Shown here piece by piece: positions 4,968 to 64,000 of a stretch of DNA of 64,000 nucleotides; positions within the stretch are counted from its first letter, which is position 1, and each line of letters opens with the position of its first letter. The position numbers were made by a program, and so were the translations under genes. The stretch is from Nannocystis bainbridge (GTDB taxonomy: Bacteria; Myxococcota_A; Polyangia; Nannocystales; Nannocystaceae): contig NZ_JAQNDL010000001.1 in the NCBI RefSeq assembly GCF_028368995.1, positions 2,048,001-2,112,000 on the forward strand. The letters run 5' to 3'. The notes under the pieces are model-generated. The model had not been told where the DNA came from. It made no database searches and worked only from the letters and a program-made list of their open reading frames with translations.

Positions 4968-5105
4968 GTCTTCTTTTGGCATGTCTTTTCGAACATTCTT
5001 TAAAGAACATGTCCATCACGACATGTCCATCACGACATGTCTATTACGACATATTGCTACGAGATATCCATGGCGCAGGTTCCATTCGCCATGTCCCTTT
5101 CGCCC
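4968..5105. repeat. Tandem array of ~10 degenerate 14-bp palindromic units (TGTC-N6-GACA)
   Basis: Consecutive units from 4982: tgtcttttcgaaca, ttctttaaagaaca, tgtccatcacgaca, tgtccatcacgaca, tgtctattacgaca, then decayed copies to ~5105. AT-rich relative to the flanks. Confidence 0.9.
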
Positions 5106-5207
5106 GGGGCGGACCCGCGGCGCGCGGTCCCGCGGACGCTCGCGCCCCGTGACGGCGATCGCCTCCCCGCTGCGTGAGCGCGCCGCGCCGGCGAGACGCT
5201 CCCATGT

Positions 5208-6257
5208 TTGGCGGAGCCCGTGCTCTCGCTCGACCCACTCGGCCCCGACGACCTCGACGAATCGCGCGAGCGGGCGCGCCTGGCCGCGCACGGCGGCGGC
5301 GGCGTGCTCTCGCCGTACGGCCCCGTCCGTCCGACCCTGCGGCCGCTGGTGCTCGTCCACGGCATCCACGGCCACCCGGGCGAGCTCGCGCCGGTGGCAG
5401 AGCACGTAAGGGCGACCGGCAGCGCCCAGCCGTATTTCTTCACCTACGACGATCTCGGGCGCTACCTCGATCGCAGCGGCGACGAGCTCGCGCGCGCCCT
5501 GGCGCAGCTCGCCTGTCACGCCCCGCGACCCGCGGTCGTGATCGTGGCCCACTCGATGGGCGGCATCGTCGCTCGCTGCGCGCTCAACTCGCTCGTCGAC
5601 CCGCGGTGGTTCCCGCTGTTCAGCCATCGCCGGCTGCGCCGCGGCAAGGTCCGCGTCCGCGGCAGCGCCGAGGCCGTGCGCGCGGGCGTGCGCCTCGAAG
5701 CCGCCTGCGCCGCCGACTTCGCCGCCGTCGACCTCCTCACCGTCGACACCCCGTGGTCCGGCTTCGCCGCGCCGCGCCTCGACCTGCGCAACTTGTGGCG
5801 GCGTCAGCGAAGCTGGGTCGACATGGTCTCCAACAGCACCGTGCTGACGCGCCTGCACGACGTCGCCTTGCCGTCGCATCTCCGGATCCACCATATCGAG
5901 GCCGATCAACCCGGCGCAGGCCTCGATCACGACAAGATTCGCACGCTCGGTGACCTCGACGACCGCGACCTCCTCCGCTTCCAGCGCGCGATCCTCGGCG
6001 AACGTGGCGCGCTCGGCCGCGACCCACGCCTGCGCAACATGTTCGCCGCCCTCGCTGGCGAACGCAGCTTCCCCATGCTCGCCGAGGGCCTGCGCGCGAC
6101 CGGCATCGTCGACGCCCCGGCGTTCCGCGCCGAGCTGCGGCGGGCCGTCCCGCGGCTCGCCGGCAGTCACACCTCCGTGCTGCAGAACACCGCCCTGTTC
6201 GCCCTGCTCGACGCATGGCTCGCCCGCGGCGCCATTGAAGTGCAGCGCCAAGCCTGA
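5208..6257 (+). CDS. Alpha/beta hydrolase (lipase/esterase-like)
   Basis: LVLVHGI oxyanion motif, AHSMGG nucleophile elbow, TVDTPWSG, C-terminal SH. TTG start. Confidence 0.8.
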   Translation: MAEPVLSLDPLGPDDLDESRERARLAAHGGGGVLSPYGPVRPTLRPLVLVHGIHGHPGELAPVAEHVRATGSAQPYFFTYDDLGRYLDRSGDELARALAQLACHAPRPAVVIVAHSMGGIVARCALNSLVDPRWFPLFSHRRLRRGKVRVRGSAEAVRAGVRLEAACAADFAAVDLLTVDTPWSGFAAPRLDLRNLWRRQRSWVDMVSNSTVLTRLHDVALPSHLRIHHIEADQPGAGLDHDKIRTLGDLDDRDLLRFQRAILGERGALGRDPRLRNMFAALAGERSFPMLAEGLRATGIVDAPAFRAELRRAVPRLAGSHTSVLQNTALFALLDAWLARGAIEVQRQA

Positions 6258-6321
6258 CCCGCGGCCGTGAATTGACCGAGCTCTTACAATCGCCGCGCAG
6301 CCTGCCGACTACGGTGAGGGC

Positions 6322-7074
6322 ATGCCCCGCAGGACGCTCCTCCTCCTCCTCGCGCTCGCCGGCTGCCAGGCCTCGCCCTGCCCGCGTGAGGCCCCCACCG
6401 TCATCGCCTGGACCCCCGGCGAGCAGTCCGGCGTCGCCGTGCCAGGGCGCACCATCACCGTCGCCGGGGCGGCCGAGGTCCTCACGGCGCCCGACACCTT
6501 CGAGCTGACGATCGGCTTCGACCTCCAGGCCCCCGACCTCGCGCGCGCCCGCGACGACAGCCGCCTGCGCGCCCGCGCCCTGCTCGACGTCATCGCCAAG
6601 AGAGCGATCCCCGAGACCGACGTCCAGACCCAGGAGCTGTCGCTGCAGCCGCGCTACGAGAGCTACGAGCACCGCAAGATCGTCGGCTATCAGGCCACGC
6701 GGCTCATGGTCGTCACCTTGCACGACCTCGACGACGTCGAAGCTGTCCTTTACGACATGCTCGCCGCCGGGGCCAACCGCGTCGACCGGGTCCAGTTCTC
6801 GAGCAGCGCCACCGGCGAGAAACGGGCCGAGGCGCGCGTGCTCGCCGTCCAGGCCGCGCGCGACAAGGCCCAGGCCATGGCCGGCGCGCTCGGCCAGCTG
6901 CTCGGCGAGCCGCTGCGCGTCGAGGAGGTCACCCTCGATCCGTGGCGCCCGCCGACGATGAACAACATGGCCCTCAACAACGACTCGGTCGCGCAGATCG
7001 GCGAAACCGTGGCGAGCGGCCGCGTCCGCGTGCAGGCCAACGTGTCCGTCACCTTCGCGCTCGCGCACCAGTGA
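6322..7074 (+). CDS. SIMPL (DUF541) domain lipoprotein
   Basis: Lipobox LAGC; ITVAGAAEV..APD, IVGYQA, GANRV, A..AARDKAQAMA, VQANVSVTF. Confidence 0.9.
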   Translation: MPRRTLLLLLALAGCQASPCPREAPTVIAWTPGEQSGVAVPGRTITVAGAAEVLTAPDTFELTIGFDLQAPDLARARDDSRLRARALLDVIAKRAIPETDVQTQELSLQPRYESYEHRKIVGYQATRLMVVTLHDLDDVEAVLYDMLAAGANRVDRVQFSSSATGEKRAEARVLAVQAARDKAQAMAGALGQLLGEPLRVEEVTLDPWRPPTMNNMALNNDSVAQIGETVASGRVRVQANVSVTFALAHQ

Positions 7075-7217
7075 CCTGTCCTCGCGGACACATTGCGGTG
7101 AGCGTCGGCGTCTCCGCCCAAGCCCACAAACGACGGCGGCGCCGGTCCTGCCCACGACGGGCGGACCGGCAGCCCCTTTCTCCGGGCCCGTTCAACGTGC
7201 AGTGAAGGGCCGGTCCG

Positions 7218-9814: not shown

Positions 9815-9856
9815 GCCATCTCCCCCGGCGGAGCCGACATGCCATTCCTGCTGCCG

Positions 9857-46281: not shown

Positions 46282-48339
46282 TCATGCGATCGTGCGGCTC
46301 GTGATTCGCCCCGTGACGTCGACGACCTCGAGCCACAGCGGGCGCCCCTCGGGGAACTCCGGCGACAGCGAAGTCATCGTCCCGTCGCGCTCGCGCTGCG
46401 TCGACCAGCGCGGCGCGAACACCTCCCCTTCGCATGCGTCGTCGATCGCCCACTCGACGAGCGCATCGAGCCCCGTCGGCGTCGCTCCGCCCGCATCGTC
46501 GGCGGCGGCGTAGTCGACGAGCCGGACCGCCCGCCCCGTCGTGGTCGTTTCGATCGCCAGCACCAGCCGGGCCGCTCGCACCGGCGCGACCGCCTCGCCA
46601 TCGGCGAAGGGCCGCGGGATCTCCCACAGCGACACCGCCTCTCCGGCGAGCTCGTGCGCCGGCGCATCGAAGTCCCACGCGATCAACTCGAGCGCGCTCG
46701 CCCCCGCGGCCCGGGCCGCTGCCAGCCAGGCCTCGATGTCGAACGCGGTCGGCCGCTGCTCGCCGACCGCGACCACCACGGCCGCCCCACCGCGACGGCC
46801 GTGGAGCGGTGCTGCGGCAGCTTCGCGCTCCGATACATGTCCATCGGGACATGTCCCGGTGAGACATCCGCCCGCGCGGGCGGCCTGTCTCTCGGGACAT
46901 CTGTCCTCCTCCATCTTTATCTCGCTGCAGATCGTACCGCGCGGTCCGGATGGCGCCTGTCCTTCGGGACATATCACCGGTCCATCTCTCTCTGCGGCCG
47001 GCGCCTCGGATCGGCTGACTCCGCTCCGCCCCGGGAGATGGCCTGCGGGACGCGCCTCCGCGCCTGCCTCCGGCGCCCCGGCCGCCCCGTCCATGACCTG
47101 TCCCTCGGGCCATGTCTTCGCCCCGTGCAGCGCCAGCAATCGCCCGCGCAGCTCCGCCTCGCCGACGCGTTCGATCAGCGCGCGCCGGGCGGCCGGCAGC
47201 GCGTCGTGCACCGCGAACGGCCCCGCTTCGCCGCGCCGACACTGCGCGCGCAGGCGCCGGCGGATCACCGCGAACGCCGGCTGCGAGCGGTCGATCACGA
47301 TCCACCGGCGGCCGTGGCGGGCTGCCACGGCTGCCGTCGTGCCCGAGCCGGCGAACGCGTCGAGGATCAGGTCGCCCGGGCGCGAGCACATCTGCACGAT
47401 CCGCTCGAGCAGCGCCTCTGGCTTCTGCGTGTCGTAGCCGACCCGCTCCGTGTGCGTGCCCTGCAGCGCGCGGATGTCCGTCCACACGTCTTGCAGCGGC
47501 ACCCCCTCTTGCTCGTCGAGGTACTGCTTCTGCCGCGGCACCGCGCCCGGGCGGCTCTGGTACACGCGGCCGCTGCGGTGCAGCGTCTCCATCGTCGCCT
47601 GGCCGTAGCGCCAGAACCGGCGCACCCCGAGGAACTCGTAGCTCGGGTTGCCCTTGGCCGCGCCGCCCGGGGCCGTGAGCGGGCTCGACATGAACCTTCG
47701 GCCGGTACCCGGCTCGACGTGCCGGTACCACTTGGCCACATAGTCCTTGTCGTACGGCGCGCGCTGGGTCGTCCACGTCCGCTCCGGACCCATCCCGTAC
47801 AGCAGCAGCACGTCGTGCACCCCACCCAGCCGGCGCGCCCCCTGGCCGGCGTCGTTGTGGGCCGAATAGCGCTTCCACGCGATCTGGTTGACGAAGTTGT
47901 CGGCCCCGAAAACCTCGTCCATCGCCACGCGCACGTGGTGGCACACCTGGATCCCGACGTGCACCACGATCGTCGCCGTCGGCTTCATCAGCGCCCGCAG
48001 CAGCGACAGCCGCGGGTACAGCATCGACAGATAGCCGGGGCCGCCCCACGAATCGCGGTAGGCCAGGACTTCGACCTCGCCCTTCCTTAAGTAGTGCGAC
48101 GCGCCGACGTCGAACGGCGGATCGATGTAGACCAGGTCGACCGCGGCGCCGAGCTCCTCGTGCAGCGCCGCCAGGGCCGGCGAGTTGTCGCCCCAGATCA
48201 GTCGATCGCACCAGCCGCTCGCCTCGCCGTCGCGCTCGCGCAGCGTCAGCGGCCCGGCCGCGACCGTCGCGGGGAGCTCGGCCTTGCCCGGCCAGGTCAG
48301 CTCCACTCGCCCTCCGGTCGGGCTGGTCCGCCTGGGCAT
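46282..48339 (-). CDS. Solo site-specific DNA methyltransferase (N4C/N6A, beta class, Mod-like) with a repeat-rich insertion
   Basis: LIWGDN, YIDPPF (motif IV) before LDAFAGSGTT (motif I), DVWTDI, YDTQKPEALLERI. No restriction gene adjacent. Confidence 0.9.
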   Translation of the reverse strand: MPRRTSPTGGRVELTWPGKAELPATVAAGPLTLRERDGEASGWCDRLIWGDNSPALAALHEELGAAVDLVYIDPPFDVGASHYLRKGEVEVLAYRDSWGGPGYLSMLYPRLSLLRALMKPTATIVVHVGIQVCHHVRVAMDEVFGADNFVNQIAWKRYSAHNDAGQGARRLGGVHDVLLLYGMGPERTWTTQRAPYDKDYVAKWYRHVEPGTGRRFMSSPLTAPGGAAKGNPSYEFLGVRRFWRYGQATMETLHRSGRVYQSRPGAVPRQKQYLDEQEGVPLQDVWTDIRALQGTHTERVGYDTQKPEALLERIVQMCSRPGDLILDAFAGSGTTAAVAARHGRRWIVIDRSQPAFAVIRRRLRAQCRRGEAGPFAVHDALPAARRALIERVGEAELRGRLLALHGAKTWPEGQVMDGAAGAPEAGAEARPAGHLPGRSGVSRSEAPAAERDGPVICPEGQAPSGPRGTICSEIKMEEDRCPERQAARAGGCLTGTCPDGHVSEREAAAAPLHGRRGGAAVVVAVGEQRPTAFDIEAWLAAARAAGASALELIAWDFDAPAHELAGEAVSLWEIPRPFADGEAVAPVRAARLVLAIETTTTGRAVRLVDYAAADDAGGATPTGLDALVEWAIDDACEGEVFAPRWSTQRERDGTMTSLSPEFPEGRPLWLEVVDVTGRITSRTIA
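46836..47116. repeat. Cluster of five or more 14-bp palindromic units in frame inside the methyltransferase
   Basis: 46838 tgtccatcgggaca, 46852 tgtcccggtgagaca, 46886 tgtctctcgggaca, 46958 tgtccttcgggaca, 47099 tgtccctcgggcca; read as TCPDGHV/RCPERQ/ICPEGQ/TWPEGQV. Confidence 0.9.
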
Positions 48340-49042: not shown

Positions 49043-49132
49043 GGCGCGCGCTTCGACGCCCCGGCGCGCGCGGGCCTGCGCACCCGCAGCCGCGGGTTTG
49101 ACACCTGCCGGCGCGGCGTGGAACACGGGGTC

Positions 49133-49948: not shown

Positions 49949-50126
49949 CGCCTGCCCGATCGGGCATGTCCCCATCGCCAGGTCCCGTGAGCTCCCTCGC
50001 GGCTCGCGGCGGGCGTCCGACACCTGACCGATCGAGCATGTCCCGATCGCCAGGTTCCGTGAGCTGCCTCGCAGGATCTGGGCATCGGCCGACACCTGAC
50101 CGATCGGGCATGTCCCGATCGCCATG
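49948..50126. repeat. 2.5 copies of a 72-bp unit built on paired 14-bp palindromes
   Basis: acctgaccgatcg(g/a)gcatgtccc(g/c)atcgcca(g/t)gt recurs at ~49950, ~50022 and ~50094 with variable linkers. Confidence 0.9.
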
Positions 50127-50142
50127 TGCCGGGTGCGCGGCT

Positions 50143-52165: not shown

Positions 52166-52178
52166 GCTCCGCGTGAGC

Positions 52179-52234
52179 TGCTCTTTCGGCCATGTCGTGA
52201 TCGACATGGCCGAAAGCACATGTCCCACAGGACA
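52179..52234. repeat. Four tandem 14-bp palindromic units between convergent genes
   Basis: tgctctttcggcca|tgtcgtgatcgaca|tggccgaaagcaca|tgtcccacaggaca. Confidence 0.9.
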
Positions 52235-52236
52235 GC

Positions 52237-53784: not shown

Positions 53785-54146
53785 TCCTTACAATCGCCGT
53801 GCTCCGCCCCGCTCGAAGCAAATCAAGCACTTGGCGGCTCTTGACGCATCACCGCTGTCCCGCCCGCTGGCCGGCGTCCCGCCGGCCGGACATGTCCCAC
53901 CCCGGAGGGCCACCTGCGTCGACGCTCACCATGCGCGACCTGGGCCGCCAATGGCCGCAGAGACAGCGAACAACCTTCGTATGATGTTTGCCACCACCCA
54001 TTCAATGTTCCGTCGGCTCTCACGGCAGCATGAACGGCCCTTCGACAATCATTCGATACACCGTGCAGCGGCCCCGCAATAGTTGCTCTTGCCGGTCGAC
54101 GAGATGTTTGCCAAGATGCCCCCGCGTCGCAGCGGAAGGTTTGTTT

Positions 54147-54512
54147 ATGGGGAATACCGGCAACCAGATCAAAAAAGCGATGGAGATCGACGGCGCGATC
54201 GCGGCCGCGATTGTCGACAGCGAGAGCGGCATGACCCTCGCCAGCGCCGGCGGCGGCGCGGCCTTCGATATCGAGGTCGCCGCCGCGGCCAACACCAACG
54301 TCGTCCAGGCCAAACTCAAGGCCATGAGCTCGCTCCGGCTCGCCGACGAGCTGGAGGACATTCTCATCACCCTGGGCAAACAATACCACATCATCCGACC
54401 GCTACGCCGCACCCCAGCCGTCTTCTATTACCTCGCCTGCGAGCGCACCAAGACGAACCTGGCGATGGCCCGACGGTCGCTGGCGGAGATCGAGCAAGCG
54501 ACGGCGCTGTAG
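54147..54512 (+). CDS. Roadblock/LC7-like small protein
   Basis: IDGAIAAAIVD..SGMTL, AAANT.VV.AK, EDILITLGKQYHIIRP, NLAMAR. Confidence 0.85.
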   Translation: MGNTGNQIKKAMEIDGAIAAAIVDSESGMTLASAGGGAAFDIEVAAAANTNVVQAKLKAMSSLRLADELEDILITLGKQYHIIRPLRRTPAVFYYLACERTKTNLAMARRSLAEIEQATAL

Positions 54513-54596
54513 CGCCGCTCACCCGCGGACAACCATTGAACCGAGGCGTCGGCGCACGAATGTCGTGCGCCTTCGCTCTGGTACAGGAGGACTATC

Positions 54597-55787: not shown

Positions 55788-55805
55788 CCGAGGAGGGACC
55801 GGGTC

Positions 55806-56399
55806 ATGGCTGTCTACGAACCAGACCGCGGGCGCATCGTCCTGCGCGTCGTCTACGACGGGCCGGGGCGCGCGGGCAAGACCACCAACGTCGAGCAGCT
55901 CGCGGGCATCTTCGGCGACAGGCCCGGCAACGAGCTGCTGGTCCACCCGGCGGCCACCGGGCGCACGATCTTCTTCGACTGGTTCAGCTTCGACGGCGGC
56001 ATGATCGACGGCCACCCGCTGCAGGTGCAGGTCGTCACCGTGCCCGGCCACAAGAGCCTCGAGCCGCGTCGGGCTCACATCCTTCACACCGCCGAGCGGC
56101 TCACCGGGCAATTCGGCCTGAACGCGATCACGGGGCGGGCGGGCAGCGCCCAGGAGCTGCGAGCGTCCCTCGAGCGCATCGAGACGAGTCGCGTCGGCCG
56201 CTGCGCCCCCGAGCGCCGCAAGGACGACGAGGTCCGCGCGGAGGTCCAGGCCGGCCTCGCCGACGCGGGCCGGGTCGTCTACATCGGCTCGCACGAGCTC
56301 ACCCACCAGCGGGTCGCGGGCGATCGCGCCGAGCCCGGGACGCGCGGGCGGACGGCGCTGCAGCAGAGCTTTTCGGACATGTCCGAAAAAGACACCTGA
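55806..56399 (+). pseudogene. MglA-like small GTPase, N-terminal half only
   Basis: VVYDGPGRAGKTTN, GRTIFFD, VTVPG...RR.IL..A; then diverges, with no G4 NKxD. Ends in a repeat-encoded tail. Confidence 0.75.
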
Positions 56400-56498
56400 C
56401 GAGCGCCCGCGTCGCTCGCCCGTGCCGGTGTCGGCCATGTTCCGACCCAAGCACCATGTCTCGAAGGGCATGCTCTCGAGAGCATGTCCTTCAAGGCA
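56366..56498. repeat. Cluster of 14-bp palindromic units between the GTPase fragment and the next ORF
   Basis: 20-bp perfect palindrome ttttcggacatgtccgaaaa (56370-56389); tgtctcgaagggca|tgctctcgagagca|tgtccttcaaggca (56457-56498). Confidence 0.9.
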
Positions 56499-57119
56499 GG
56501 GGGCCATCGCCTGCATACCCGCGGCGAGTGGCGGTTCGGCGCGCGCGAGCGCGGCCGCGAGGCGCTCATCGCCCACGTGCGGCGGACCGCCCGGCTCGGC
56601 CCCTTGCTCCCGGCCGGGAGCGCCGTCGCGCTGGCGACCACCGAAGCCGAAGCCGACGAGGTCGTCCTGTGGCACATCGTGCCTGACCTGCCCTCGCTGG
56701 GCGCCGCCCTGACCGCCGCGACCGAGGCCGAGCGCCCGCGGCAGCTGGCCCGGCTCGCGGCCGCCTACGCCGCCGCGCTGCGGCTGGTGGCGCGCGAGGG
56801 CATCGTCCTCACCCTCGACCCGCACGCCTTCGCCGAGCAGGACGGGCGATCGGTCTACCTCGGCGATCGCCTGGGCGAGCCCGAACGGTCGCCCGACCTC
56901 GTGGGCGCGCTGCTGGCCCCGTGCGCCGGCCTGAGCGAGGCCTCGCGCGCCGCCTGGCAGACCGCGCTCGAGCAGGCCGTGCCGGCCACCTTGACGCGCG
57001 AGGACGTCGCCGCTCTCGGCCTCGAGCGCGCGCTGACGGCCTCGGCGACGGTCCCCGCGCGCGCGGCCGAGGCCCGCGCGCGCGACCGGCTGCGGATGAC
57101 GCTCGGGCTCTGCACCTGA
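56484..57119 (+). CDS. Hypothetical protein, possibly the detached C-terminal domain of the GTPase gene
   Basis: Protein-like ORF whose ATG lies at a repeat junction (gcATGt). Confidence 0.55.
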   Translation: MSFKAGGHRLHTRGEWRFGARERGREALIAHVRRTARLGPLLPAGSAVALATTEAEADEVVLWHIVPDLPSLGAALTAATEAERPRQLARLAAAYAAALRLVAREGIVLTLDPHAFAEQDGRSVYLGDRLGEPERSPDLVGALLAPCAGLSEASRAAWQTALEQAVPATLTREDVAALGLERALTASATVPARAAEARARDRLRMTLGLCT

Positions 57120-57134
57120 GCGCGGCTGCGGGCG

Positions 57135-57443
57135 CTAGTTGAACAGCTTGCCGAGGCGCATGGCCACGCCCATGTCGCCTTCGATCTTGATCTTGCCGGT
57201 CATGAACGCGGTGGTCGGGTCGAGCTTCTTCGCCGCCATCTTGGCGAAGTCCTCGAGCGAGACCTTGACCGTGCACTTGGCCGGGCGGTCGTCGTTGTCG
57301 ACCGTGTTGGGCGTGCTCTCGCCGTCGATGTAGAGCACCTGCGCGTCGGAGAACACGAACTTGATCGTCGCCTTGAGGCCCGAGTCGTCGCCGACCTTCG
57401 CGCGGATCTCTTCGGTGAACTTTTCCAGGCTGATGTCGCTCAT
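57135..57443 (-). CDS. SCP2 sterol/lipid-binding domain protein
   Basis: LDPTTAFMTGKIKIEGDMGVAMRL. Confidence 0.93.
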   Translation of the reverse strand: MSDISLEKFTEEIRAKVGDDSGLKATIKFVFSDAQVLYIDGESTPNTVDNDDRPAKCTVKVSLEDFAKMAAKKLDPTTAFMTGKIKIEGDMGVAMRLGKLFN

Positions 57444-57630
57444 GAAGCCTGCCTACCACAATCCTCCGGCGCCTTCGACGCCCGCGGCGTCCGGACCTGC
57501 GCCGCGAAAATCTACTCGCCGACGCCGGTCCGTTCCGCCTGCCCCCCACGTCAGCGCATACGCCGTCCTCGGCCCGGCCCGCGGCGATTTCCGCTTCCCC
57601 TGGTCCCGCGGCTGTGTACGATGCGGCGCC

Positions 57631-58497
57631 ATGAGCGGGTACCGTTCCGTCTTTCGTCCGGGCCTGTTCGCCGGGCAAACGATCGTGGTCACCGGCGGCG
57701 GCAGCGGGATCGGTCGCTGCACCGCGCACGAGCTGGCCGCGCTCGGTGCTCACCCGGTGCTGGTCGGCCGCAAGCTGGCCAAGCTCGAGGCCACCGCCGC
57801 CGAGATCGTCGCCGACGGCGGCGCCTGTTCGCTGCACGCCTGCGACATCCGCGAGGAGGCCCAGGTCAAGGCGACGGTGGCCGCGATCGTGGCCGCGCGC
57901 GGGCGCATCGACGGGCTCGTCAACAACGCCGGCGGGCAGTTCCCGGCCCCGCTGTCCGCGATCTCGCAGAAGGGCTTCGAGACCGTCGTGCGCACCAACC
58001 TCGTCGGCGGGTTTCTGTTCGCCCGCGAGGTCTACACGCAGTCGATGGCCGAGCGCGGCGGCTCGATCGTCAACATCGTCGCCGACATGTGGCGCAGCAT
58101 GCCGGGCATGGGCCACTCCGGGGCCGCGCGCGCCGGCATGGTCAACTTCACGCAGACCGCCGCGGTCGAGTGGGCGCCCTCGGGCGTGCGCGTCAACGCC
58201 GTCGCGCCGGGCTGGATCGCCTCGTCGGGCATGGACAACTACGACCCCGACATGCTCAAGGGCCTGCTGCCGCGGCTCAAGGCCGCCGTGCCGCTGCACC
58301 GCCTCGGCACCGAGGCCGAGGTCAGCGCCGCGATCGTCTTCCTGCTCAGCGAGGCCGCCGGGTTCATCAGCGGCTCGACGCTGCGGGTCGACGGCGCCGC
58401 CCCCAACTCCAGCGCCGTGTGGCCCGCGAGCGAGCACGACCGCTCGAAGCCGTACGAGGGCTTCCACCGCGCCGAGCTCCCCGACAACCTGCGCTAA
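57631..58497 (+). CDS. atuB: SDR oxidoreductase, AtuB-like (citronellol/citronellal dehydrogenase)
   Basis: YRSVFRPGLFAGQ..VTGGGSGIGRC.AHEL, NNAGGQF, MPGMGHSGAARAGM; first gene of the operon. Confidence 0.8.
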   Translation: MSGYRSVFRPGLFAGQTIVVTGGGSGIGRCTAHELAALGAHPVLVGRKLAKLEATAAEIVADGGACSLHACDIREEAQVKATVAAIVAARGRIDGLVNNAGGQFPAPLSAISQKGFETVVRTNLVGGFLFAREVYTQSMAERGGSIVNIVADMWRSMPGMGHSGAARAGMVNFTQTAAVEWAPSGVRVNAVAPGWIASSGMDNYDPDMLKGLLPRLKAAVPLHRLGTEAEVSAAIVFLLSEAAGFISGSTLRVDGAAPNSSAVWPASEHDRSKPYEGFHRAELPDNLR

Positions 58498-58510
58498 AGG
58501 CCAGCCAGTC

Positions 58511-60139
58511 ATGCCCGTGCTCACGTCCCGCATCGACCTCCAGGGCGACCTGTTCCAGGCGAACCGCGCCGCCCAGCTGAAGCTCATCGACGACTTCCGC
58601 GCCGCCGAGAAGCGCGTGCGCGACAACTCGGGCAAGCAGGCCGAGAAGTTCGCCAAGCGCGGGCAGCTGCTCCCGCGCGACCGGGTCGCGCGGCTGCTCG
58701 ATCGCGGCGCGCCGTTCCTCGAGCTGTCGACCCTGGCCGGCTACAAGATGCACGACGACGACGGCAAGAGCGACGCCAGCGGCGGCGGCTGCATCGTCGG
58801 CATCGGCGTGGTCTCGGGCGTGCGGTGCATCGTCAGCGCCAGCGACAGCGCGATCAAGGGCGGGGCGATCTCGCCCATGGGCCTGCGCAAGAGCCTGCGG
58901 GCCCAGGAGATCGCGCTCGAGCACAAGCTGCCGATCATCTCTTGCGTCGAGAGCGCGGGCGCCAACCTCCTCTATCAGGCCGAGATCTTCGTCGACGGCG
59001 GGCGCGTGTTCGCCAACATGGCGCGGCTGTCGGCCGCCGGCGTCCCGCAGATCACGATCGTGCACGGCAGCAGCACCGCCGGCGGCGCCTACTTACCGGG
59101 CCTCTCGGACTACGTGATCGCGGTGCGCGGCCAGGCCAAGGTGTTCCTGGCCGGCCCGCCGCTGGTGGAGGCCGCGCTCGGCGAGGTCGCCACCGACGAG
59201 GAGCTCGGCGGCGCCGAGCTGCACGCCACGGTCACCGGCACCGCCGAGTACGTGGCCGAGAACGACGCCCACGCGATCCACCTCGCGCGCGAGCTGCTGG
59301 CCAACCTCCAGCGCGCGCCGCTGGGCCGGTTCGCACATGACCTCTCGACCAGGCCGCACCGCCCGCCGCGCTTCGACGTCGAGGACCTGCTCGGCATCGT
59401 CCCGGTCGACTTCAAGAAGCCCTACGACGTCCGCGAAGTGATCGCTCGCCTGGTCGACGACAGCGATTTCTTCGAGTTCAAGGCGCTTTACGGTTCGGCG
59501 ACGGTGTGCGGCCACGCCCTCATCGAGGGCCACGCCGTCGGCATCCTCGGCAACAACGGCCCGATCAACCCCGACGGCGCCTGCAAGGCCGGGCAGTTCA
59601 TCCAGCTGTGCTGCCAGAGCGGCACCCCGCTGCTGTTCCTGCAGAACACCACCGGCTACATGGTCGGCACCGCGGCCGAGCGGGCCGGCATGGTCAAGCA
59701 CGGCTCGAAGATGATCCAGGCGGTCGCCAACGCCGACGTCCCGAAGCTCACCGTCATCATGGGCGGCAGCTTCGGCGCCGGCAACTACGGCATGTGCGGC
59801 CGCTCCTACGACCCGCGGTTCGTGTTCGCCTGGCCCGGCAGCCGGATCGCCGTGATGGGCGGCGAGCAGGCCGCCAAGGTCATGGAGATCATCACCACCG
59901 CCAAGTTCGCCCGCATGGGCATGAAGGCCGACCCCGACGCGATGGCCCAGATGGGCAAGTCGATCAAGGACCGCCTCGACGCCGAGTCGACCGCGCTCTA
60001 CGCCACCGCGAGGCTGTGGGACGACGGCCTCATCGACCCCCGCGACACCCGCCGCGTGCTCGCCCTGGCGCTCGCCGTCTGCCGCGAGGGCGAGGCCCGC
60101 CGCGTCCGCCCCACCAGCTTCGGCGTCGCCCGCCTGTGA
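58511..60139 (+). CDS. atuC: Geranyl-CoA carboxylase carboxyltransferase subunit (AtuC-like)
   Basis: RGQLLPRDRV..LLD, GSSTAGGAYLPG, FLQNTTGYMVG, GSFGAGNYGMCGR. Confidence 0.85.
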   Translation: MPVLTSRIDLQGDLFQANRAAQLKLIDDFRAAEKRVRDNSGKQAEKFAKRGQLLPRDRVARLLDRGAPFLELSTLAGYKMHDDDGKSDASGGGCIVGIGVVSGVRCIVSASDSAIKGGAISPMGLRKSLRAQEIALEHKLPIISCVESAGANLLYQAEIFVDGGRVFANMARLSAAGVPQITIVHGSSTAGGAYLPGLSDYVIAVRGQAKVFLAGPPLVEAALGEVATDEELGGAELHATVTGTAEYVAENDAHAIHLARELLANLQRAPLGRFAHDLSTRPHRPPRFDVEDLLGIVPVDFKKPYDVREVIARLVDDSDFFEFKALYGSATVCGHALIEGHAVGILGNNGPINPDGACKAGQFIQLCCQSGTPLLFLQNTTGYMVGTAAERAGMVKHGSKMIQAVANADVPKLTVIMGGSFGAGNYGMCGRSYDPRFVFAWPGSRIAVMGGEQAAKVMEIITTAKFARMGMKADPDAMAQMGKSIKDRLDAESTALYATARLWDDGLIDPRDTRRVLALALAVCREGEARRVRPTSFGVARL

Positions 60140-60199
60140 CCTCCACGACTTCGCGTCACCTGTCCCTTCGAACATCCTGACCCGAGAGCCAGCCCCGCC

Positions 60200-61357
60200 A
60201 TGCCGCTGTTCACCGACGAGCACGACCTCCTGCGCGACAGCCTGCGCAAGTTCATCGCCCGGGAGATCAACCCCTACTGCGACGAATGGGAGGAGGCGCG
60301 GATCTTCCCGGCCCACGAGCTGTTCAAGAAGCTCGGCAACGAGGGCTTCCTCGGCCTGACCAAGCCGACCGAGTACGGCGGCGCCGCCCTCGACTACTCG
60401 TACGCGCTGGTGATGGCCGAGGAGCTCGGGCGCGTCGACGCCGGCGGCGTGTCGCTGGCGATCGGCGTGCAGACCGACATGTGCACGCCGGCGCTGGCGA
60501 AGTTCGGCTCGGACGAGCTCAAGAAAGAGTGGCTCGCGCCCTCGATCGCCGGCGACCTGGTCGGCTGCATCGGCGTGTCGGAGGTCGGCGCCGGCTCCGA
60601 CGTCGCCAGCCTCAAGACCTACGCCCGCAAGGACGGCGACGACTACGTCATCACCGGCGGCAAGATGTGGATCACCAACGGCGTCCAGGCCGACTGGATG
60701 TGCTGCCTCGCCAACACCAGCGACGACAAGCCGCACAAGAACAAGACCCTCATCATCGTCCCGCTCGACTCGAAGGGCGTCGAGCGGGCCCGCAAGCTGC
60801 ACAAGCTCGGCATGTGGTCGTCGGACACCGCGCAGATCTTCTTCGACGAGGTCCGCGTGCCGCAGCGCTACGCGATCGGCCCCGAGGGCGCCGGCTTCAT
60901 GCTGCAGATGCTGCAGTTCCAGGAGGAGCGGCTGTGGGGCGCCGCCAACTCGCTGACGGCGATGGACACCGCGATCGCCGAGACGATCAAGTACACCCGC
61001 GAGCGCCAGGCCTTCGGCAAGTCGATCCTCGACAACCAGGTGGTCCACTTCCGCATCGCCGAGCTGCTGACCGAGGTCGAGTCGCTGCGGGCGCTGATCT
61101 ACCGCGCCGCCGAGCTGTTCATCTCCGGCAAGGACGTGACCCGCCTGGCCTCGATGGCCAAGCTCAAGTCGGGCCGCCTCGGCCGCGAGGTCGCCGACAG
61201 CTGCCTGCAATACTGGGGCGGCATGGGCTACATGTGGGAATCGAAGATCTCGCGCCTGTTCCGCGACTCGCGCCTGATCTCGGTCGGCGGCGGCGCCGAC
61301 GAGGTCATGCTCGGCATCATCGCCAAGCTCGACGGCATCCTGCCCGGGAGAGGCTGA
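60200..61357 (+). CDS. atuD: Acyl-CoA dehydrogenase, citronellyl-CoA dehydrogenase-like
   Basis: IGVQTDMCTPAL, GVSEVGAGSDV, GGKMWITNG, QFQEERL, GGGADEVM. Confidence 0.85.
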   Translation: MPLFTDEHDLLRDSLRKFIAREINPYCDEWEEARIFPAHELFKKLGNEGFLGLTKPTEYGGAALDYSYALVMAEELGRVDAGGVSLAIGVQTDMCTPALAKFGSDELKKEWLAPSIAGDLVGCIGVSEVGAGSDVASLKTYARKDGDDYVITGGKMWITNGVQADWMCCLANTSDDKPHKNKTLIIVPLDSKGVERARKLHKLGMWSSDTAQIFFDEVRVPQRYAIGPEGAGFMLQMLQFQEERLWGAANSLTAMDTAIAETIKYTRERQAFGKSILDNQVVHFRIAELLTEVESLRALIYRAAELFISGKDVTRLASMAKLKSGRLGREVADSCLQYWGGMGYMWESKISRLFRDSRLISVGGGADEVMLGIIAKLDGILPGRG

Positions 61358-61363
61358 AAGGAC

Positions 61364-62194
61364 ATGTCCCAAACGACATTGCCCGAGTGCCAGACGCTGC
61401 TGCTGCGCCGCGACGGCTGGCGCCTGCACGTCACGCTGAACCGGCCCGAGGCGCGCAACGCGATGTCGTTCGCCATGGTCCACGAGCTGCAGGCGGTGTT
61501 CGCCGCGATCGCGGGCGACCGCGAGGTGCGGGCGGTGCTCCTGCGCGGCGCCGGGGGCAACTTCTGCGCCGGCGGTGACATCAAGGACATGGCCGGCGCC
61601 CGCGGGGCCGAGCCGGGCCCCGACGGCAAGGATCCGCTGGCGACGACCAACCGGATCTTCGGCGCGATGCTGCAGCAGATCGAGGACGCCCCGCAGGCGG
61701 TCGTCGCGGTGCTCGAGGGCGCGGTCATGGGCGGCGGCTTCGGCCTGTGCTGCGTCAGCGACGTCGCCGTCGCCGTCGACGATTCCAAGCTGCGCCTGCC
61801 CGAGACCGGCCTCGGCGTGCCGCCGGCCCAGATCGCCCCGTTCATCGTCCGCCGCGTCGGCTACAGCGCAGCGCGCCGGCTCGCGGTCACCGGCGGGGCG
61901 CTCGGCCCCGACGAGGGGCTGCGCCTCGGGCTGGTCCACCACGTGACCGATCGGGCAGGTCTCGAGGGACAGGTGGCGAAGGTCCTGGCCGACATCGGCC
62001 GCTGCGCCCCCGAGGCGGTCGCCACCACCAAGCGGCTGGTCCTGGCCGCCAGCGGGGCGCCGCACGGCGACGCCCTGTCCGCCCTGCTCGACGTCGCCGC
62101 CGACGAATTCGCCCGCGCCGCCCGCGGCTCCGAGGGCGTCGAGGGCATGCTCGCATTCATTCAGAAGCGCAACGCCGCCTGGAACGACCAATGA
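61364..62194 (+). CDS. atuE: Enoyl-CoA hydratase, isohexenylglutaconyl-CoA hydratase-like
   Basis: LNRPEARNAM, FCAGGDI, GGGFGL, LPETGLGV.PAQIAPF. Confidence 0.82.
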   Translation: MSQTTLPECQTLLLRRDGWRLHVTLNRPEARNAMSFAMVHELQAVFAAIAGDREVRAVLLRGAGGNFCAGGDIKDMAGARGAEPGPDGKDPLATTNRIFGAMLQQIEDAPQAVVAVLEGAVMGGGFGLCCVSDVAVAVDDSKLRLPETGLGVPPAQIAPFIVRRVGYSAARRLAVTGGALGPDEGLRLGLVHHVTDRAGLEGQVAKVLADIGRCAPEAVATTKRLVLAASGAPHGDALSALLDVAADEFARAARGSEGVEGMLAFIQKRNAAWNDQ

Positions 62195-64000
62195 CCTTCT
62201 CCACGATCCTGATCGCCAACCGCGGCGAGATCGCCTGCCGGATCATCCGCACCGCCCACGCCCTCGGCTACCGCACCGTCGCCGTCTACAGCGACGCCGA
62301 CGCCGGCGCCCCGCACGTCGGCCTGGCCGATCGCGCGGTCCGGATCGGTCCGCCGCCGGTGCGCGAGTCGTACCTGAACGTCGCGGCGCTGCTCGCCGCG
62401 GCCAGGCAGGCCGGCGCCGACGCGGTCCACCCGGGCTACGGCTTCCTGTCGGAGAACGACGGCTTCGCCCAGGCGGTGCTCGACGCAGGCCTCGTGTTCA
62501 TCGGCCCGTCGCCGGCGGCGATCCGGGCGATGGGCAACAAGGCCGCGGCCAAGCGGGCGATGATCGCCGCCGGGGTCCCGTGCATTCCTGGCTTTCAGGA
62601 CAGCAGCGACGACGGCCAGTCCGCCGCGCGCCTGACCGCCGAGGCCGAGCGCATCGGCCTGCCGCTGCTGATCAAGGCGGCGGCCGGCGGCGGCGGCCGC
62701 GGCATGCGGATGGTCCGCGACTGGGACGGGCTACCGGCGGCGCTGGCGTCGGCGCGCAGCGAGGCCGAGAGCGCGTTCGGCAGCAGCGAGCTGATCCTCG
62801 AGCGCGCGCTCACCAGCGGCCGCCACGTCGAGATCCAGGTGTTCGGCGACAGCCACGGCCATGCGATTCACCTCGGCGAGCGCGACTGCTCGGTCCAGCG
62901 TCGCCACCAGAAGGTCGTCGAGGAGTCGCCGTCGCCGGCCGTGACGCCGGCCCTGCGCGCCGAGATGGGCGCCGCCGCGGTGCTCGCCGCGCGCTCGATC
63001 GACTACGTCGGCGCCGGCACCGTCGAGTTCATGCTCGACGCCGACGGCAAGTTCTACTTCCTCGAGATGAACACGCGCCTGCAGGTCGAGCACCCGGTCA
63101 CCGAGCTGGTCACCGGCCTCGACCTGGTGGCCTGGCAGCTGCGGGTGGCCGCGGGCGAGCCGCTGCCGCTGGCGCAGGAGCAGATCGAGCTGCGCGGCCA
63201 CGCGATCGAGGTCCGCCTCTACGCCGAAGATCCGTACGCCGGCTACCTGCCCCAGGCCGGCGAGGTCGTCGCCTGGCAGCCCGCCAGCGGCGACGGCGTG
63301 CGCGTCGACCACGGCCTCCACCGCCAGCAGACGGTGTCGCCGTTCTACGACCCGATGATCGCCAAGGTCATCAGCCACGGCCGCACCCGCGACGAGGCTC
63401 GCCGCCGCCTGGTGAGCGCGCTCGGCCGCAGCGTCCTGCTCGGCCTGGCCAACAACAAGCGCTTCCTCGCCGATATCCTCGAGCACCCGGTGTTCGCCGC
63501 CGGCGGCGCGACCACCCGCTTCCTCGACGAGCACCTGCCCGCGCCCGCGCGGCCCGAGCCCGACGCGCGCGCGTGGGCGATCGCCGCCGCGATCTGGACT
63601 TTGGGACATGTCCGCGGGGACTACAGCCCGTGGCGCAGCGCCGGCCGGGCCGCGTTCCCCCTGACCCTTCGGACAGGTGAACGCGAGCGCGAGCTGGCCG
63701 TCGACCTCGACCCCGGCGGCATCACCACCGTCACCGTCGACGGCGTCGCCCTGCCGGTGCGCCTGCTCGGGCGCGACGGCGTGGTCTTCCGCGTGCTGGT
63801 CGGCGAGGTGCAAGAGACCGTGCACGCCGCGGTGGTCGGCGAGCGCCTGTTCCTCGACGCGCGCGGCGTGCAGGCCGAGTTCACCGAGCCGCCGCCGAAG
63901 GGCGCCGCGCCCGAGGCCGAGGTCGGCGGCGACGGCAACCTGCTCGCGCCCACCAGCGGCCGCGTGGTCGCGGTGCACGTACAGGTCGGCGACCGCGTCC
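62191..64000 (+). CDS. atuF: Geranyl-CoA carboxylase biotin carboxylase subunit (runs off the window)
   Basis: ATG at 62191 overlaps the atuE stop; ILIANRGEIA, HPGYGFLSEN, GGGGRGM, ERDCSVQRRHQK, EMNTRLQVEHPVTE, YDPMIAK. Confidence 0.85.
   Translation, partial: MTFSTILIANRGEIACRIIRTAHALGYRTVAVYSDADAGAPHVGLADRAVRIGPPPVRESYLNVAALLAAARQAGADAVHPGYGFLSENDGFAQAVLDAGLVFIGPSPAAIRAMGNKAAAKRAMIAAGVPCIPGFQDSSDDGQSAARLTAEAERIGLPLLIKAAAGGGGRGMRMVRDWDGLPAALASARSEAESAFGSSELILERALTSGRHVEIQVFGDSHGHAIHLGERDCSVQRRHQKVVEESPSPAVTPALRAEMGAAAVLAARSIDYVGAGTVEFMLDADGKFYFLEMNTRLQVEHPVTELVTGLDLVAWQLRVAAGEPLPLAQEQIELRGHAIEVRLYAEDPYAGYLPQAGEVVAWQPASGDGVRVDHGLHRQQTVSPFYDPMIAKVISHGRTRDEARRRLVSALGRSVLLGLANNKRFLADILEHPVFAAGGATTRFLDEHLPAPARPEPDARAWAIAAAIWTLGHVRGDYSPWRSAGRAAFPLTLRTGERERELAVDLDPGGITTVTVDGVALPVRLLGRDGVVFRVLVGEVQETVHAAVVGERLFLDARGVQAEFTEPPPKGAAPEAEVGGDGNLLAPTSGRVVAVHVQVGDRV

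Follow-up and report, generated by a model that had tools for sequence, protein, structure and literature searches.

The word TGTCC-N4-GGACA is a hyper-abundant, genus-specific gapped palindrome of the soil myxobacterial genus Nannocystis, and its signal in the genome is far stronger than is visible in the window, the 64-kb stretch of DNA that was analysed. Thousands of copies lie mostly just behind genes and have arms that were kept by evolution, and the agent that reads them is not described in the literature. With a probability of about one half, this is a double-stranded DNA word for a putative dimeric, sequence-specific protein whose dimers can form rows along phased arrays and which probably acts at the ends of transcription units.

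Abundance, spacing and distribution

The window holds six perfect copies against 0.04 expected, a number reached by none of 100 dinucleotide-preserving shuffles, as well as 16 copies with at most one mismatch (1.70 expected) and 13 copies of the junction word GGACATGTCC with at most one mismatch (1.87 expected). The first-pass annotation had judged the perfect copies to be far above chance and had asked for a test of N4 specificity. The excess holds, and the specificity is extreme: the 11.05-Mb genome contains 1987 perfect N4 copies, whereas the other 15 spacers of the N0-N15 series yield 0-19 apiece. One-mismatch copies number 4258 (~4000 above background), giving 6245 copies with at most one mismatch, or ~1 per 1.8 kb, and the word ranks top among the 5-Nk-5 palindromes of the genome. 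On one strand the half-sites TGTCC and GGACA occur 23,769 times against ~20,500 estimated from base composition; the half-site alone is not enriched, and enrichment is limited to the dyad at exactly N4.

The 11 Nannocystis genomes contain 114-2090 copies each and two sister genera contain 87 and 161, with background levels in other genomes, in keeping with the lineage-specific word first proposed. No description of the word was found in the literature, as had also been suspected, and an Rfam search matched rRNAs only and nothing for the word.

Genome-wide, GGACATGTCC-N4 units form a lattice with a 14-bp period, in which units abut at GGACA/TGTCC junctions containing CATG. Distances of 14, 28 and 42 bp occur 3736, 2073 and 1586 times between CATG motifs (~60-480 at other distances) and 485, 274 and 165 times between adjacent copies. 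There are also local minisatellites of 36-48-bp units with one copy of the word per unit, and the unit number of arrays varies among congeners.

Variation of arms, spacer and flanks

Among the 4258 one-mismatch copies, G2 is altered in 29 and C13 in 21, whereas T3 and A12, in the middle of their arms, are altered in 946 and 943, to all three other bases, a pattern that fits base contacts and not pairing. The C13-to-T change, whose G-U pair would be tolerated, accounts for 13 copies. Double variants at mirror positions occur at about the product of the single-variant rates, and for the T3/A12 pair arithmetic on the variant counts places compensatory G-C at 0.4 times and A-T at 0.7 times expectation; the two half-sites vary independently. 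At the loop-closing pair there are 151 wobble and 156 mismatch variants, and at the two inner stem positions, with copies oriented by transcription, wobble-compatible variants are in mild excess (165 versus 112).

The palindrome does not extend beyond the arms: complementarity of the first flank pair is 0.54 versus 0.45, and that of pairs 2-24 deviates from expectation by no more than 0.05. Relative to transcription the word is symmetric, the upstream flank having almost the composition of the mirrored downstream one, and a T tract is absent. Copies have only the 10 arm bases in common, and neither spacer nor flanks, although the spacer has a mild preference for a central YCGR. Predicted folding energies are -6 kcal/mol for the core hairpin and -10.7 kcal/mol for an 8-bp form.

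Copies in the window

All six perfect copies reported in the first-pass annotation (7077, 13743, 21261, 46838, 46958 and 52221) were recovered, as were its near-perfect copies and arrays with a 14-bp period, from 4982-5051 through 63662. Its contexts were likewise correct, both outside genes (7077 just past a stop codon, 52221 between convergent genes) and within them (6744, 13743, 46838-47112 and 63595-63675; Table 1). As it had also noted, the rRNA genes are free of the word: the operon at 14846-19912 has no copies among sites with at most one mismatch or among two-mismatch sites with a CA or TG flank.

Table 1. Copies and arrays of TGTCC-N4-GGACA in the window
Feature	Position	Context
Five-unit 14-bp array (starts 4982, 4996, 5010, 5024, 5038; one mismatch each at 5010 and 5024, two each at 4982 and 5038)	4982..5051	Intergenic, after gene ending at 4963
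One-mismatch copy	6744..6757	Within SIMPL (PF04402) gene, 6322-7074
Perfect copy	7077..7090	Starts 2 nt past SIMPL stop codon; between convergent genes
One-mismatch copy	13426..13439	Within ada-alkA
Perfect copy	13743..13756	Within ada-alkA (13186-14637, minus), AlkA_N domain; encodes P-V-L-R-D-S
Three degenerate phased units, two mismatches each	20480..20521	Upstream of 16S rRNA gene
Perfect copy	21261..21274	30 nt past stop of glutathione S-transferase gene
Two-mismatch copy	38677	
Four copies: 46838 (perfect), 46886, 46958 (perfect), 47099	46838..47112	N6/N4 DNA methyltransferase ORF, 46282-48306, minus
Degenerate phased units	49953..50124	Inside ~60-70 bp tandem repeat, between convergent genes
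Three phased units: 52193 and 52207 (two mismatches each), 52221 (perfect)	52193..52234	Between convergent genes 51713-52165 (plus) and comM/yifB-like 52237-53775 (minus)
Junction word GGACATGTCC	53888..53897	Upstream of comM/yifB-like gene
GGACATGTCC at 56375; degenerate phased units at 56457 and 56485	56375..56498	Unit at 56485 overlaps predicted ATG at 56484
One-mismatch copy	60161..60174	Between carboxyltransferase and acyl-CoA dehydrogenase genes
GGACATGTCC and one-mismatch copy	61360..61378	Fill gap from acyl-CoA dehydrogenase stop (61357) to enoyl-CoA hydratase start
Near-perfect copy	61958	
Three copies: 63595 (two mismatches), 63609 and 63662 (one each)	63595..63675	Inside biotin-carboxylase subunit gene

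The copies in the methyltransferase gene lie in a low-GC3, in-frame linker, where the word is read as C/W-P/S-E-G-Q repeats, and from anchor to anchor this stretch is 408-663 nt long in the five genomes, of six, from which it was recovered. The tandem repeat at 49953..50124 has three copies here and two in both alignable congeners, and the array at 52193..52234 has kept its arms in two congeners while its spacers differ.

Position relative to genes

The density of copies per kb is 4.76 in convergent, 1.78 in tandem and 0.61 in divergent intergenic DNA and 0.27 within genes, so that convergent regions are 18 times denser than genes and differ 8-fold from divergent ones. A copy is present in 57% of 1307 convergent regions versus 16% of 1453 divergent regions, and 48% of the 2614 genes with a convergent neighbour have one between -14 and +100 nt relative to the stop codon. 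Offsets from the stop peak at -3, +2, +11, +16, +25 and +39; the +2 offset of the copy at 7077 is one of these peaks. Genes nevertheless contain 37% of the perfect copies and ~2450 copies with at most one mismatch. Sites of the parS and matS types are confined to the ori or ter domain, and no such confinement was found here, which upholds the earlier view that the word is of neither type. That annotation had not remarked on how strongly the word is tied to the 3′-ends of genes or on its stop-codon phasing.

Conservation and origin

Conservation was assessed for G000 versus G005 alone, in alignable DNA only, with genes called by a home-made gene caller and with an expectation aware of codon position. 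Arm identity is 0.964 for perfect in-gene copies (0.861 expected, z 6.4), 0.954 for one-mismatch in-gene copies (0.864 expected, z 9.9) and 0.930 for perfect intergenic copies (0.835 expected, z 4.9). The outer T and A of in-gene copies are 0.944-0.974 identical (0.70-0.72 expected), whereas A/T bases at third codon positions elsewhere are only 0.419 identical. Spacers of perfect intergenic copies fall below expectation (0.655 versus 0.838, z -6.0). In these alignments the arms are thus held above their surroundings at the DNA level, while the spacer evolves faster, a feature that had previously been overlooked.

In-gene copies arose by substitution and not by insertion: of four that were compared with distant orthologues, three had no indel. 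The copy at 13743 is perfect in three of the compared congeners (G003, G005 and G007), has one mismatch in two (G001 and G010), and is missing without an indel from four more distant homologues. In a congener of ~89% identity, 11 of 16 aligned copies have perfect arms. Gaps lie within 30 nt of 28 of the 34 perfect intergenic copies aligned to G005, which points to fast turnover of intergenic arrays.

Interpretation

A dimeric reader, with one 5-bp half-site per subunit, a rigid spacing and an unread spacer, could have its neighbouring dimers side by side on arrays because the units abut every 14 bp. The first-pass annotation had proposed such a dimeric, possibly oligomerising protein, with a putative nucleoid, segregation or recombination function, and the internal statistics fit the dimer, with two independent 5-bp half-sites, a fixed spacing and 14-bp phased arrays. 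Selection, or drive via the same protein, would hold the arms against the strong AT-to-GC pressure of the genome, and new copies come from point substitution and local tandem duplication, not from transposition. Because copies are concentrated directly downstream of stop codons and in convergent intergenic regions, the word would most likely act where transcription units end, serving there as an insulator or roadblock or helping to handle supercoils or nucleoid structure. Both the dimeric nature of the reader and what it does are what we infer, and several observations pull the other way: the 3′-end bias and stop-codon phasing would also be expected of an RNA element, the mild wobble-compatible excess at inner stem positions counts against a dimer, drive through biased uptake or repair could mimic selection on the arms, and a function as a roadblock alone would not readily explain the in-gene copies.

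It is unlikely, if still worth weighing, that the word is an uptake or recombination signal under molecular drive, like DUS/USS and, as recently proposed, HIP1. Word-bearing DNA would then be preferred by a recombination protein or DNA receptor, so that copies build up by point mutation wherever they are tolerated. Specificity at the level of the genus, the graded counts of the sister genera, the presence of copies both in and between genes, their origin by substitution and their density all agree with such drive, and the window has a comM/yifB-like gene, albeit of a common family. Uptake words so far known, however, are contiguous and non-palindromic, whereas here a lone half-site is not enriched, and permissiveness alone predicts neither the 8-fold convergent/divergent difference nor the stop-codon phasing. 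In favour of such a signal, DUS are reported to be mostly intergenic and often to form inverted pairs at terminators (PMC2397512), and an uptake role has been proposed for HIP1 (PMC13756078). More doubtful is an RNA hairpin element at gene 3′-ends, of the same kind as the mycobacterial TRIT motif and REP elements. Density does track how many gene 3′-ends a region has (~2:1:0), near-stop copies are frequent at convergent genes, phasing to the stop codon is reported for TRIT (PMC3152330), and a palindrome gives the same hairpin in either direction; the array at 52176-52222 has a predicted fold of -28.4 kcal/mol, and its outer spacers change compensatorily in two congeners. Yet variation in the arms peaks at mid-stem, where every substitution would disrupt the hairpin, the tolerable C13 to T change is almost absent, compensatory doubles are not consistent, wobble equals mismatch at the loop-closing pair, and the T tract and an Rfam match other than rRNA are lacking, while more than a third of perfect copies sit, conserved, in genes.

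A selfish or mutational by-product without a function of its own, either a REP/MITE-like mobile element or the outcome of slippage and template switching at quasi-palindromes, is improbable. It would suit the fast turnover of intergenic arrays, the minisatellites with their differing unit numbers, and an 80-bp block centred on the word that is identical on two contigs of another genus. Against it, a search of the genome found no Y1/RAYT transposase while 6 of 14 control genomes gave matches, so the earlier view that this is no REP element holds for the RAYT type; copies are alike only in the 10 arm bases, unlike copy-and-paste products; in-gene copies lack indels and have arms conserved above their surroundings; and most aligned copies are common to the ~89%-identity congener. 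Slightly less probable still is maintenance by an orphan methyltransferase, or by repair linked to such an enzyme, that recognises the word or the CATG junction. HIP1 is recognised by two methylases according to published accounts (PMC4390886, PMC13756078), the junction of abutting units contains CATG, and copies are present in the linker of the window's N6/N4 methyltransferase gene itself, but CATG is missing on both sides of 888 of the 1987 perfect copies, and that methyltransferase is not distributed with the word, with close orthologues (87-91% identity) in only 5 of 10 other motif-rich genomes of the genus and homologues of 37-44% identity in genomes both with and without it. The first-pass reading is supported in part, for a lineage- and N4-specific, non-RAYT, dimer-compatible word, and its methylation link stays conjectural.

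Comparison with known repeated words

Two comparators are close in behaviour: mycobacterial TRIT, which was missing from the first-pass annotation, and cyanobacterial HIP1, which it named but not as now understood. HIP1 (GCGATCGC) is likewise a lineage-limited, hyper-abundant short palindrome. It is reported in and between ORFs and conserved beyond background between genomes, which argues for selection, although its function is described as unsettled (PMC5861425); the conservation test used here follows the same logic. HIP1 is, however, a contiguous 8-mer with known cognate methylases, whereas the Nannocystis word, a 5-4-5 dyad, is gapped, leaves its spacer free and has 14-bp phased arrays, an 18-fold convergent-end concentration and another phylum as its home. 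TRIT ('tuberculosis Rho-independent terminator', Mycobacterium) is described as genus-restricted, conserved in sequence and structure, palindromic and narrowly placed relative to stop codons, and its authors suspected an additional sequence-reading factor (PMC3152330). Both elements are palindromic and therefore bidirectional, but 147 copies are reported for TRIT against ~6000 here (at most one mismatch), and the Nannocystis word tolerates mid-stem change, shows no pairing constraint and is genic in more than one third of its perfect copies.

The DUS/USS of Neisseriaceae and Pasteurellaceae are also family- or genus-specific words at ~1 per kb, DUS being reported as genic but more often intergenic, with inverted pairs behind genes and a place in permissive regions (PMC2397512). 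Uptake words differ in being contiguous, asymmetric and sufficient as a single copy, whereas the Nannocystis word is enriched only as an N4 dyad. REP/BIME elements are short palindromic repeats, associated with RAYT transposases, that cluster behind genes and between convergent genes and are sometimes arrayed, as here; the Nannocystis word differs in that its genome has no Y1/RAYT gene, its copies have nothing but the 10 arm bases in common and its in-gene copies arise by substitution. Operators of dimeric helix-turn-helix proteins, such as the FNR-type TTGAT-N4-ATCAA and the LacI/CcpA-type TG...CG...CA, offer a lead through their 14-bp dyad, independent 5-bp half-sites and few near-invariant bases (G2 and C13 here). 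The sites of an operator regulon, however, number in the tens to hundreds and lie mainly at promoters, whereas there are thousands of sites for the Nannocystis word, with a depletion in divergent (promoter) regions and with arrays of abutting units.

Abundance and spacing of TGTCC-N4-GGACA

The gapped palindrome TGTCC-N4-GGACA consists of two 5-bp arms and a 4-base spacer. The six perfect copies that the first-pass annotation had located in the window are present, and dinucleotide-preserving shuffles contain a mean of 0.04 copies, with none of 100 shuffles reaching six. The window also holds 16 copies with one mismatch (1.70 expected) and 13 occurrences, at up to one mismatch, of the CATG-containing junction word GGACATGTCC formed where units abut (1.87 expected). 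The arrays with a 14-bp period were read directly from the sequence and tabulated with their gene context, and the same tabulation bears out the reported absence of the word from the rRNA genes. Gene names in the annotation are the same as, or close equivalents of, those assigned by Pfam, which supports SIMPL, an ada-alkA fusion, an N6/N4 DNA methyltransferase, and an atu/liu-like cluster of carboxyltransferase, acyl-CoA dehydrogenase, enoyl-CoA hydratase, and biotin-carboxylase genes.

The over-representation extends across the assembly of this genome (G000; 11,048,555 bases in 5 contigs, 71-72% G+C, 90.5% complete) and is specific to one spacer length. A scan of spacers N0-N15 found 1987 perfect copies at N4 and 0-19 at each other spacer (median 5.5), with 3 for the reversed control, an excess of ~270-660-fold at exactly one spacing, depending on the choice of control. 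Among all 5-Nk-5 palindromes of the genome (k 0-12), TGTCC-N4-GGACA is the strongest outlier; the next are register-shifted readings of the same word (ACATG-N10-CATGT, for instance, has 1472 copies), and the rest are codon-periodicity effects. Copies with one mismatch number 4258 at N4 vs 98-322 at other spacers tested, and those with two mismatches 7530 vs 2058-5923; the family therefore has ~6000 clear members and probably several thousand more.

Sites of the parS, matS, and SBS type number in the tens and are confined to one chromosomal domain. In contrast, the word is spread over all five contigs, with 6245 copies at up to one mismatch and 10-108 per 100 kb. A few 100-kb blocks are poor in copies (Table), and giant gene clusters or DNA of foreign origin may explain them; the stretch at C1 1.1-1.3 Mb also has a GC skew close to zero.

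Arms, spacer, and arrays

The logo around perfect copies reads R-C-A/C TGTCC Y-Y-R-R GGACA T/G-G-Y, and the spacer is free, its most frequent form (CCGA) accounting for only 107 of 1987 copies. Variation in the arms (positions 1-5 and 10-14) is very uneven. Among the 4258 one-mismatch copies, G2 is changed 29 times and its mirror C13 21 times; the mid-stem bases T3 and A12 are changed 946 and 943 times, with each of the three alternative bases represented. Change of C13 to T is nearly absent, though a G-U pair would be kept. Mirror positions vary almost independently, as judged from background-subtracted counts of double variants against the product of single rates: for T3/A12, the compensatory G-C, A-T, and C-G doubles occur at 0.4x, 0.7x, and 2.3x, and non-pairing doubles at 0.8-1.0x.

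Complementarity of the flanks of perfect copies, followed to 24 nt, is not above expectation past the first pair, and an extended hairpin was rejected, with one palindrome in the window as the exception (Table). Spacers oriented by transcription are almost symmetric (chi-square p 0.03, from CCGA 70 vs TCGG 30) and have no UUCG or GNRA bias of the kind that a tetraloop preference would leave.

The junction word occurs 956 times in G000; at 760 of these, one or both sides have a partner half-site (up to one mismatch) at the N4 spacing. Conversely, 888 of the 1987 perfect dyads are flanked by no CATG at all. It follows that the family is built from the N4 dyad, with the junction word as a secondary feature. 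CATG words are 14, 28, and 42 apart in 3736, 2073, and 1586 cases, vs ~60-480 at other distances, and adjacent copies are separated by 14, 28, 42, and 56 in 485, 274, 165, and 58 cases. Many arrays are local minisatellites with 36-48-bp units carrying one copy each.

Position relative to genes

Genes were called in G000 with our own codon-likelihood caller, whose stop codons are exact and start codons uncertain; it returned 7962 genes covering 80-84% of each contig, probably somewhat low. The perfect copies divide into 1235 intergenic, 734 within genes, and 18 across a gene end, vs shares of 17%, 81%, and 2% for random positions. Those within genes are spread evenly along hosts of ordinary coding score and occupy all three frames (62, 266, and 406 copies).

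With up to one mismatch allowed, genes contain 0.27 copies per kb, and divergent, tandem, and convergent intergenic regions 0.61, 1.78, and 4.76 per kb. The share of regions with one copy or more is 57% among 1307 convergent ones (67% for the 613 of 100-300 bp), 27% among 3678 tandem, and 16% among 1453 divergent. Where a gene has a convergent neighbour, a copy falls at -14 to +100 nt of its stop in 48% of cases. In tandem regions, 466 copies are closer to the upstream stop vs 189 closer to the downstream start, and the median distance to the stop is 78 nt. Peaks in the stop-codon offset lie at -3, +2, +11, +16, +25, and +39 and form two 14-nt series (-17, -3, +11, +25, +39 and +2, +16, +30). 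At offset -3 (66 copies in G000) the first three bases of the left arm are the stop codon, with a TGA stop giving the variant TGACC. Further copies follow these in 14-nt steps, as if the ORFs stop at the first unit of an array. Predicted ATG starts fall within the CATG junction in 71 genes, with start calls too unreliable to lean on. A density that follows the number of gene 3′ ends per region, the depletion at promoters, and the phasing to stop codons suggest, from position, that the word has a function, or at least some effect, where transcription units end.

Conservation and origin of copies

With 1.2 Mb of a congener, G005, aligned to G000, the best hits of at least 80% identity total ~767 kb, a comparison that covers the alignable DNA of one congener. 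Baseline identity is 0.94/0.90 at codon position 1 and 0.94/0.96 at position 2; at position 3 it is 0.875 for G/C but only 0.419 for A/T, and alignable non-coding DNA stands at 0.86/0.80. With codon position accounted for, the arms are conserved beyond expectation in three of four classes of copy (z 4.9-9.9): in-gene perfect copies (n=36; 0.964 vs 0.861, z 6.4), in-gene one-mismatch copies (n=114; 0.954 vs 0.864, z 9.9), and intergenic perfect copies (n=37; 0.930 vs 0.835, z 4.9), with intergenic one-mismatch copies at z 1.2. The outer T and A of the arms are kept at 0.94-0.97 vs 0.70-0.72 expected. The spacer is under-conserved, both in genes (0.785 vs 0.869, z -3.4) and between them (0.655 vs 0.838, z -6.0; A/T 0.59, G/C 0.63), and among classes of useful size only A/T third codon positions are lower than the intergenic spacer. 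We do not claim hypermutation of the spacer because the alignable non-coding baseline is itself biased to conserved DNA. In the first 188 kb aligned, 11 of 16 perfect copies have perfect arms in G005. Gaps lie within 30 nt of 28 of the 34 aligned perfect intergenic copies, and turnover of intergenic arrays proceeds by indels.

Four in-gene copies in conserved proteins were aligned with more distant orthologues, where the annotation had raised the question of whether such copies would be absent. For three of them (in ada-alkA and in two proteins named on sequence and not through a family search, an ABC-F ATPase and a deoxyhypusine-synthase-like protein) the alignment confirms the location in a gene and is gap-free at the copy, and the codons of distant homologues are unrelated, so the word arose by substitution, with no indel. 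The FeoB copy lies in a variable linker and is ambiguous in origin. For two of the three genes, a perfect copy at the same place is found in G013, which belongs to another genus, and is absent in the congener G009, a pattern suggestive of recurrent gain at predisposed peptides (x-V-L-K-D-x) or of loss. Repeats in the linker of the window methyltransferase represent a second route to in-gene copies; the linker joins the catalytic domain to a C-terminal domain without a known family, and the stretch between anchors measures 408, 408, 504, 631, and 663 nt in the five Nannocystis genomes recovered.

Distribution among genomes

The first-pass view of a lineage-specific word holds among the genomes compared, which include kin and are not independent samples. 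The 14-mer occurs 1987, 2090, 1550, 1793, 1900, and 1599 times in the six large Nannocystis genomes and 114-959 times in five smaller or fragmented ones. Two further genera of the family have 161 (G013) and 87 copies, and the other 18 genomes have 0-7 (reversed control, 0-10). Among 185,579 species' genomes, 78 stretches carry the 24-base double unit: 64 from Nannocystis, 9 from a MAG of Nannocystaceae, 2 from one of Myxococcales, and 3 single matches elsewhere, each with one copy per locus. A phage-borne word was rejected, a 20-mer occurring in 8 viral-contig stretches (2.9 million contigs), once each and without clustering. Four soil-metagenome contig sets placed on window positions 44001-64000 gave only short mixed pieces, uninformative about the word.

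No other dominant gapped palindrome was found in 200 kb of G011, a sister genus of 61% G+C, or in 41 kb of G013. In G011 (L168-L177, the same 200 kb) GAATC-N7-GATTC occurs 11 times vs a median of 0 at other spacers and may be a different iterated palindrome of that genome. An 80-bp block shared by two contigs of G013 (Table) may be a small dispersed repeat.

Comparison with known repeated words

REP/RAYT elements have a cognate Y1 (IS200/IS605-like) transposase and extragenic copies, related by descent, of an imperfect palindrome of ~20-40 nt. The word was set apart from this family in the annotation, and rightly: a search for PF01797 that matched 6 of 14 control genomes found 0 matches in G000, and 734 of the 1987 perfect copies are in called genes. 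Unlike REP, the word has a free spacer, flanks without complementarity past the first pair, and no shared loop or flanks.

In behaviour the word is closest to HIP1, which is described (PMC5861425, PMC13756078) as hyper-abundant in and between genes, conserved, and of open function. Both are short, palindromic, many-fold over-represented within and between ORFs, and conserved beyond background; HIP1 is contiguous and has cognate methyltransferases; the Nannocystis word is gapped, and the one methyltransferase compared, that of the window, does not track it. In placement the nearest analogue is TRIT, which is genus-restricted, palindromic, and bidirectional, with narrow placement at stop codons and a suspected sequence-reading factor (PMC3152330). 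The word shares with TRIT and terminators a narrow position relative to stop codons and an association with 3′ ends, but its stem pairing is not conserved and the U tract of the canonical type does not follow the hairpin; no T enrichment was seen downstream of transcription-oriented copies, and a canonical terminator was rejected on this ground and on the symmetry of copies with respect to transcription. Intergenic bias and terminator pairs, ascribed to DUS in PMC2397512, are shared by the word. The enriched unit of DUS/USS is a single asymmetric word, whereas here half-site totals are near the composition expectation and only the N4 dyad is enriched. The word lacks defining features of REP, DUS/USS, and pairing-constrained terminators.

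A structured RNA family was likewise rejected, Rfam 15 at gathering score matching only 5S, 16S, and 23S rRNA in the window. A literature search, with paper supplements outside its range, found nothing on the word, its junction, or palindromic, repetitive, or intergenic elements of the genus; among the matches listed for GGACATGTCC, all are papers on eukaryotes, the majority concerning p53 sites.

To our knowledge, only a small number of hyper-abundant words are specific to a lineage (HIP1, DUS/USS, REP, TRIT), and in most cases the reader and function were found after decades or are still open. The Nannocystis word adds a hyper-abundant gapped palindrome for which we found no published description, and a clean case, with a single spacing and a large excess, in large-genome myxobacteria of natural-product interest. 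Half-site independence, the free spacer, abutting arrays, and stop phasing point to a protein that could be pulled down, and the graded series (~2000 copies in large Nannocystis genomes, 87-161 in two sister genera, none elsewhere) is usable for phylogenetic profiling. For practical use, the word is a marker of native Nannocystis DNA and an indicator of 3′ gene ends in annotation. In these hard-to-engineer bacteria it may also be relevant to the design of genetic tools for transformation, termination, or insulation.

A candidate reader and its rivals

Fixed spacing, independent half-sites, near-invariant bases, an unread spacer, dyad symmetry with respect to transcription, and abutting arrays argue for a word read as double-stranded DNA by a dimeric protein, with a probability that we put at about 0.5. 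Each subunit would contact one half-site, leaving the spacer unread, and the abutting 14-bp arrays would let dimers bind side by side. It is conceivable, if doubtful as a complete scheme, that in Nannocystis such a protein polymerises on phased arrays behind stop codons and marks transcription-unit ends, the arrays serving as sequence-specific, bidirectional roadblocks or insulators that replace intrinsic terminators, with the in-gene word tolerated or used for nucleoid organisation; the presence of a site in more than half of convergent gene pairs belongs to this scheme.

A drive through DNA uptake or recombination would also need a protein reading double-stranded DNA, but the enrichment of a dyad where uptake would favour a single asymmetric word makes it rather unlikely. 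An RNA hairpin of the TRIT or REP kind could account for the slight surplus of wobble-compatible variants at the two inner positions of the stem (165 vs 112, summed), a surplus that could equally reflect a transcription-linked mutation bias; such a hairpin is distinctly unlikely given equal wobble and mismatch variants at the loop-closing pair (151 vs 156), a mid-stem that is the most variable part of the arm, and the lack of consistent compensatory doubles. Hairpin constraint was also rejected on the core fold of only -6 kcal/mol and the near prohibition of C13 to T. That the word is a mobile or mutational by-product is improbable, and a methylation-linked process more improbable still; the window methyltransferase was rejected as a partner since it is not co-distributed with the word.

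Other features of the window

The window methyltransferase scores far below the CcrM cut-off of NCBIfam, and no NCBIfam family was matched among its neighbours.

Table. Locations of individual features (window positions count from C1:2048001-2112000 of G000)
Feature	Location	Strand	Observation
ada-alkA protein	13186-14637	minus	483 residues; Ada zinc-binding, AraC-type HTH, AlkA_N, HhH-GPD glycosylase domains; gene apparently split into two frames in the congener G007
rRNA operon	14846-19912		no copy of the word tabulated
Repeat protein	21407-24043	plus	878 residues; WD40 repeats at ~residues 90-310; pentapeptide repeats near C-terminus
N6/N4 DNA methyltransferase	46282-48306	minus	PF01555 at residues 56-343
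Methyltransferase linker	46776-47046		in frame; low GC3; word-derived C/W-P/S-E-G-Q repeats
Tandem repeat	49949-50142		between convergent genes; ~60-70 bp, degenerate phased copies per unit; three repeats vs two in both alignable congeners
PF08014 protein	50143-51411	minus	full-length match, E 1.2e-104
Long palindrome	52176-52222		15-bp stem across two units; -28.4 kcal/mol, z -6.9; outer spacers change compensatorily in two congeners; exception to genome-wide lack of extended pairing
Copy-poor 100-kb blocks	C1 ~1.1-1.3 Mb; C1 0.5-0.6 Mb; C5 0.4-0.5 Mb		10-17 copies vs mean 56
80-bp block of G013	L202:1444-1523; L206	L206 reverse	identical, centred on word; no similarity outside block

The family PF08014 is now named after the eukaryotic microtubule-associated tyrosine carboxypeptidase MATCAP, and is here encoded by a myxobacterium.
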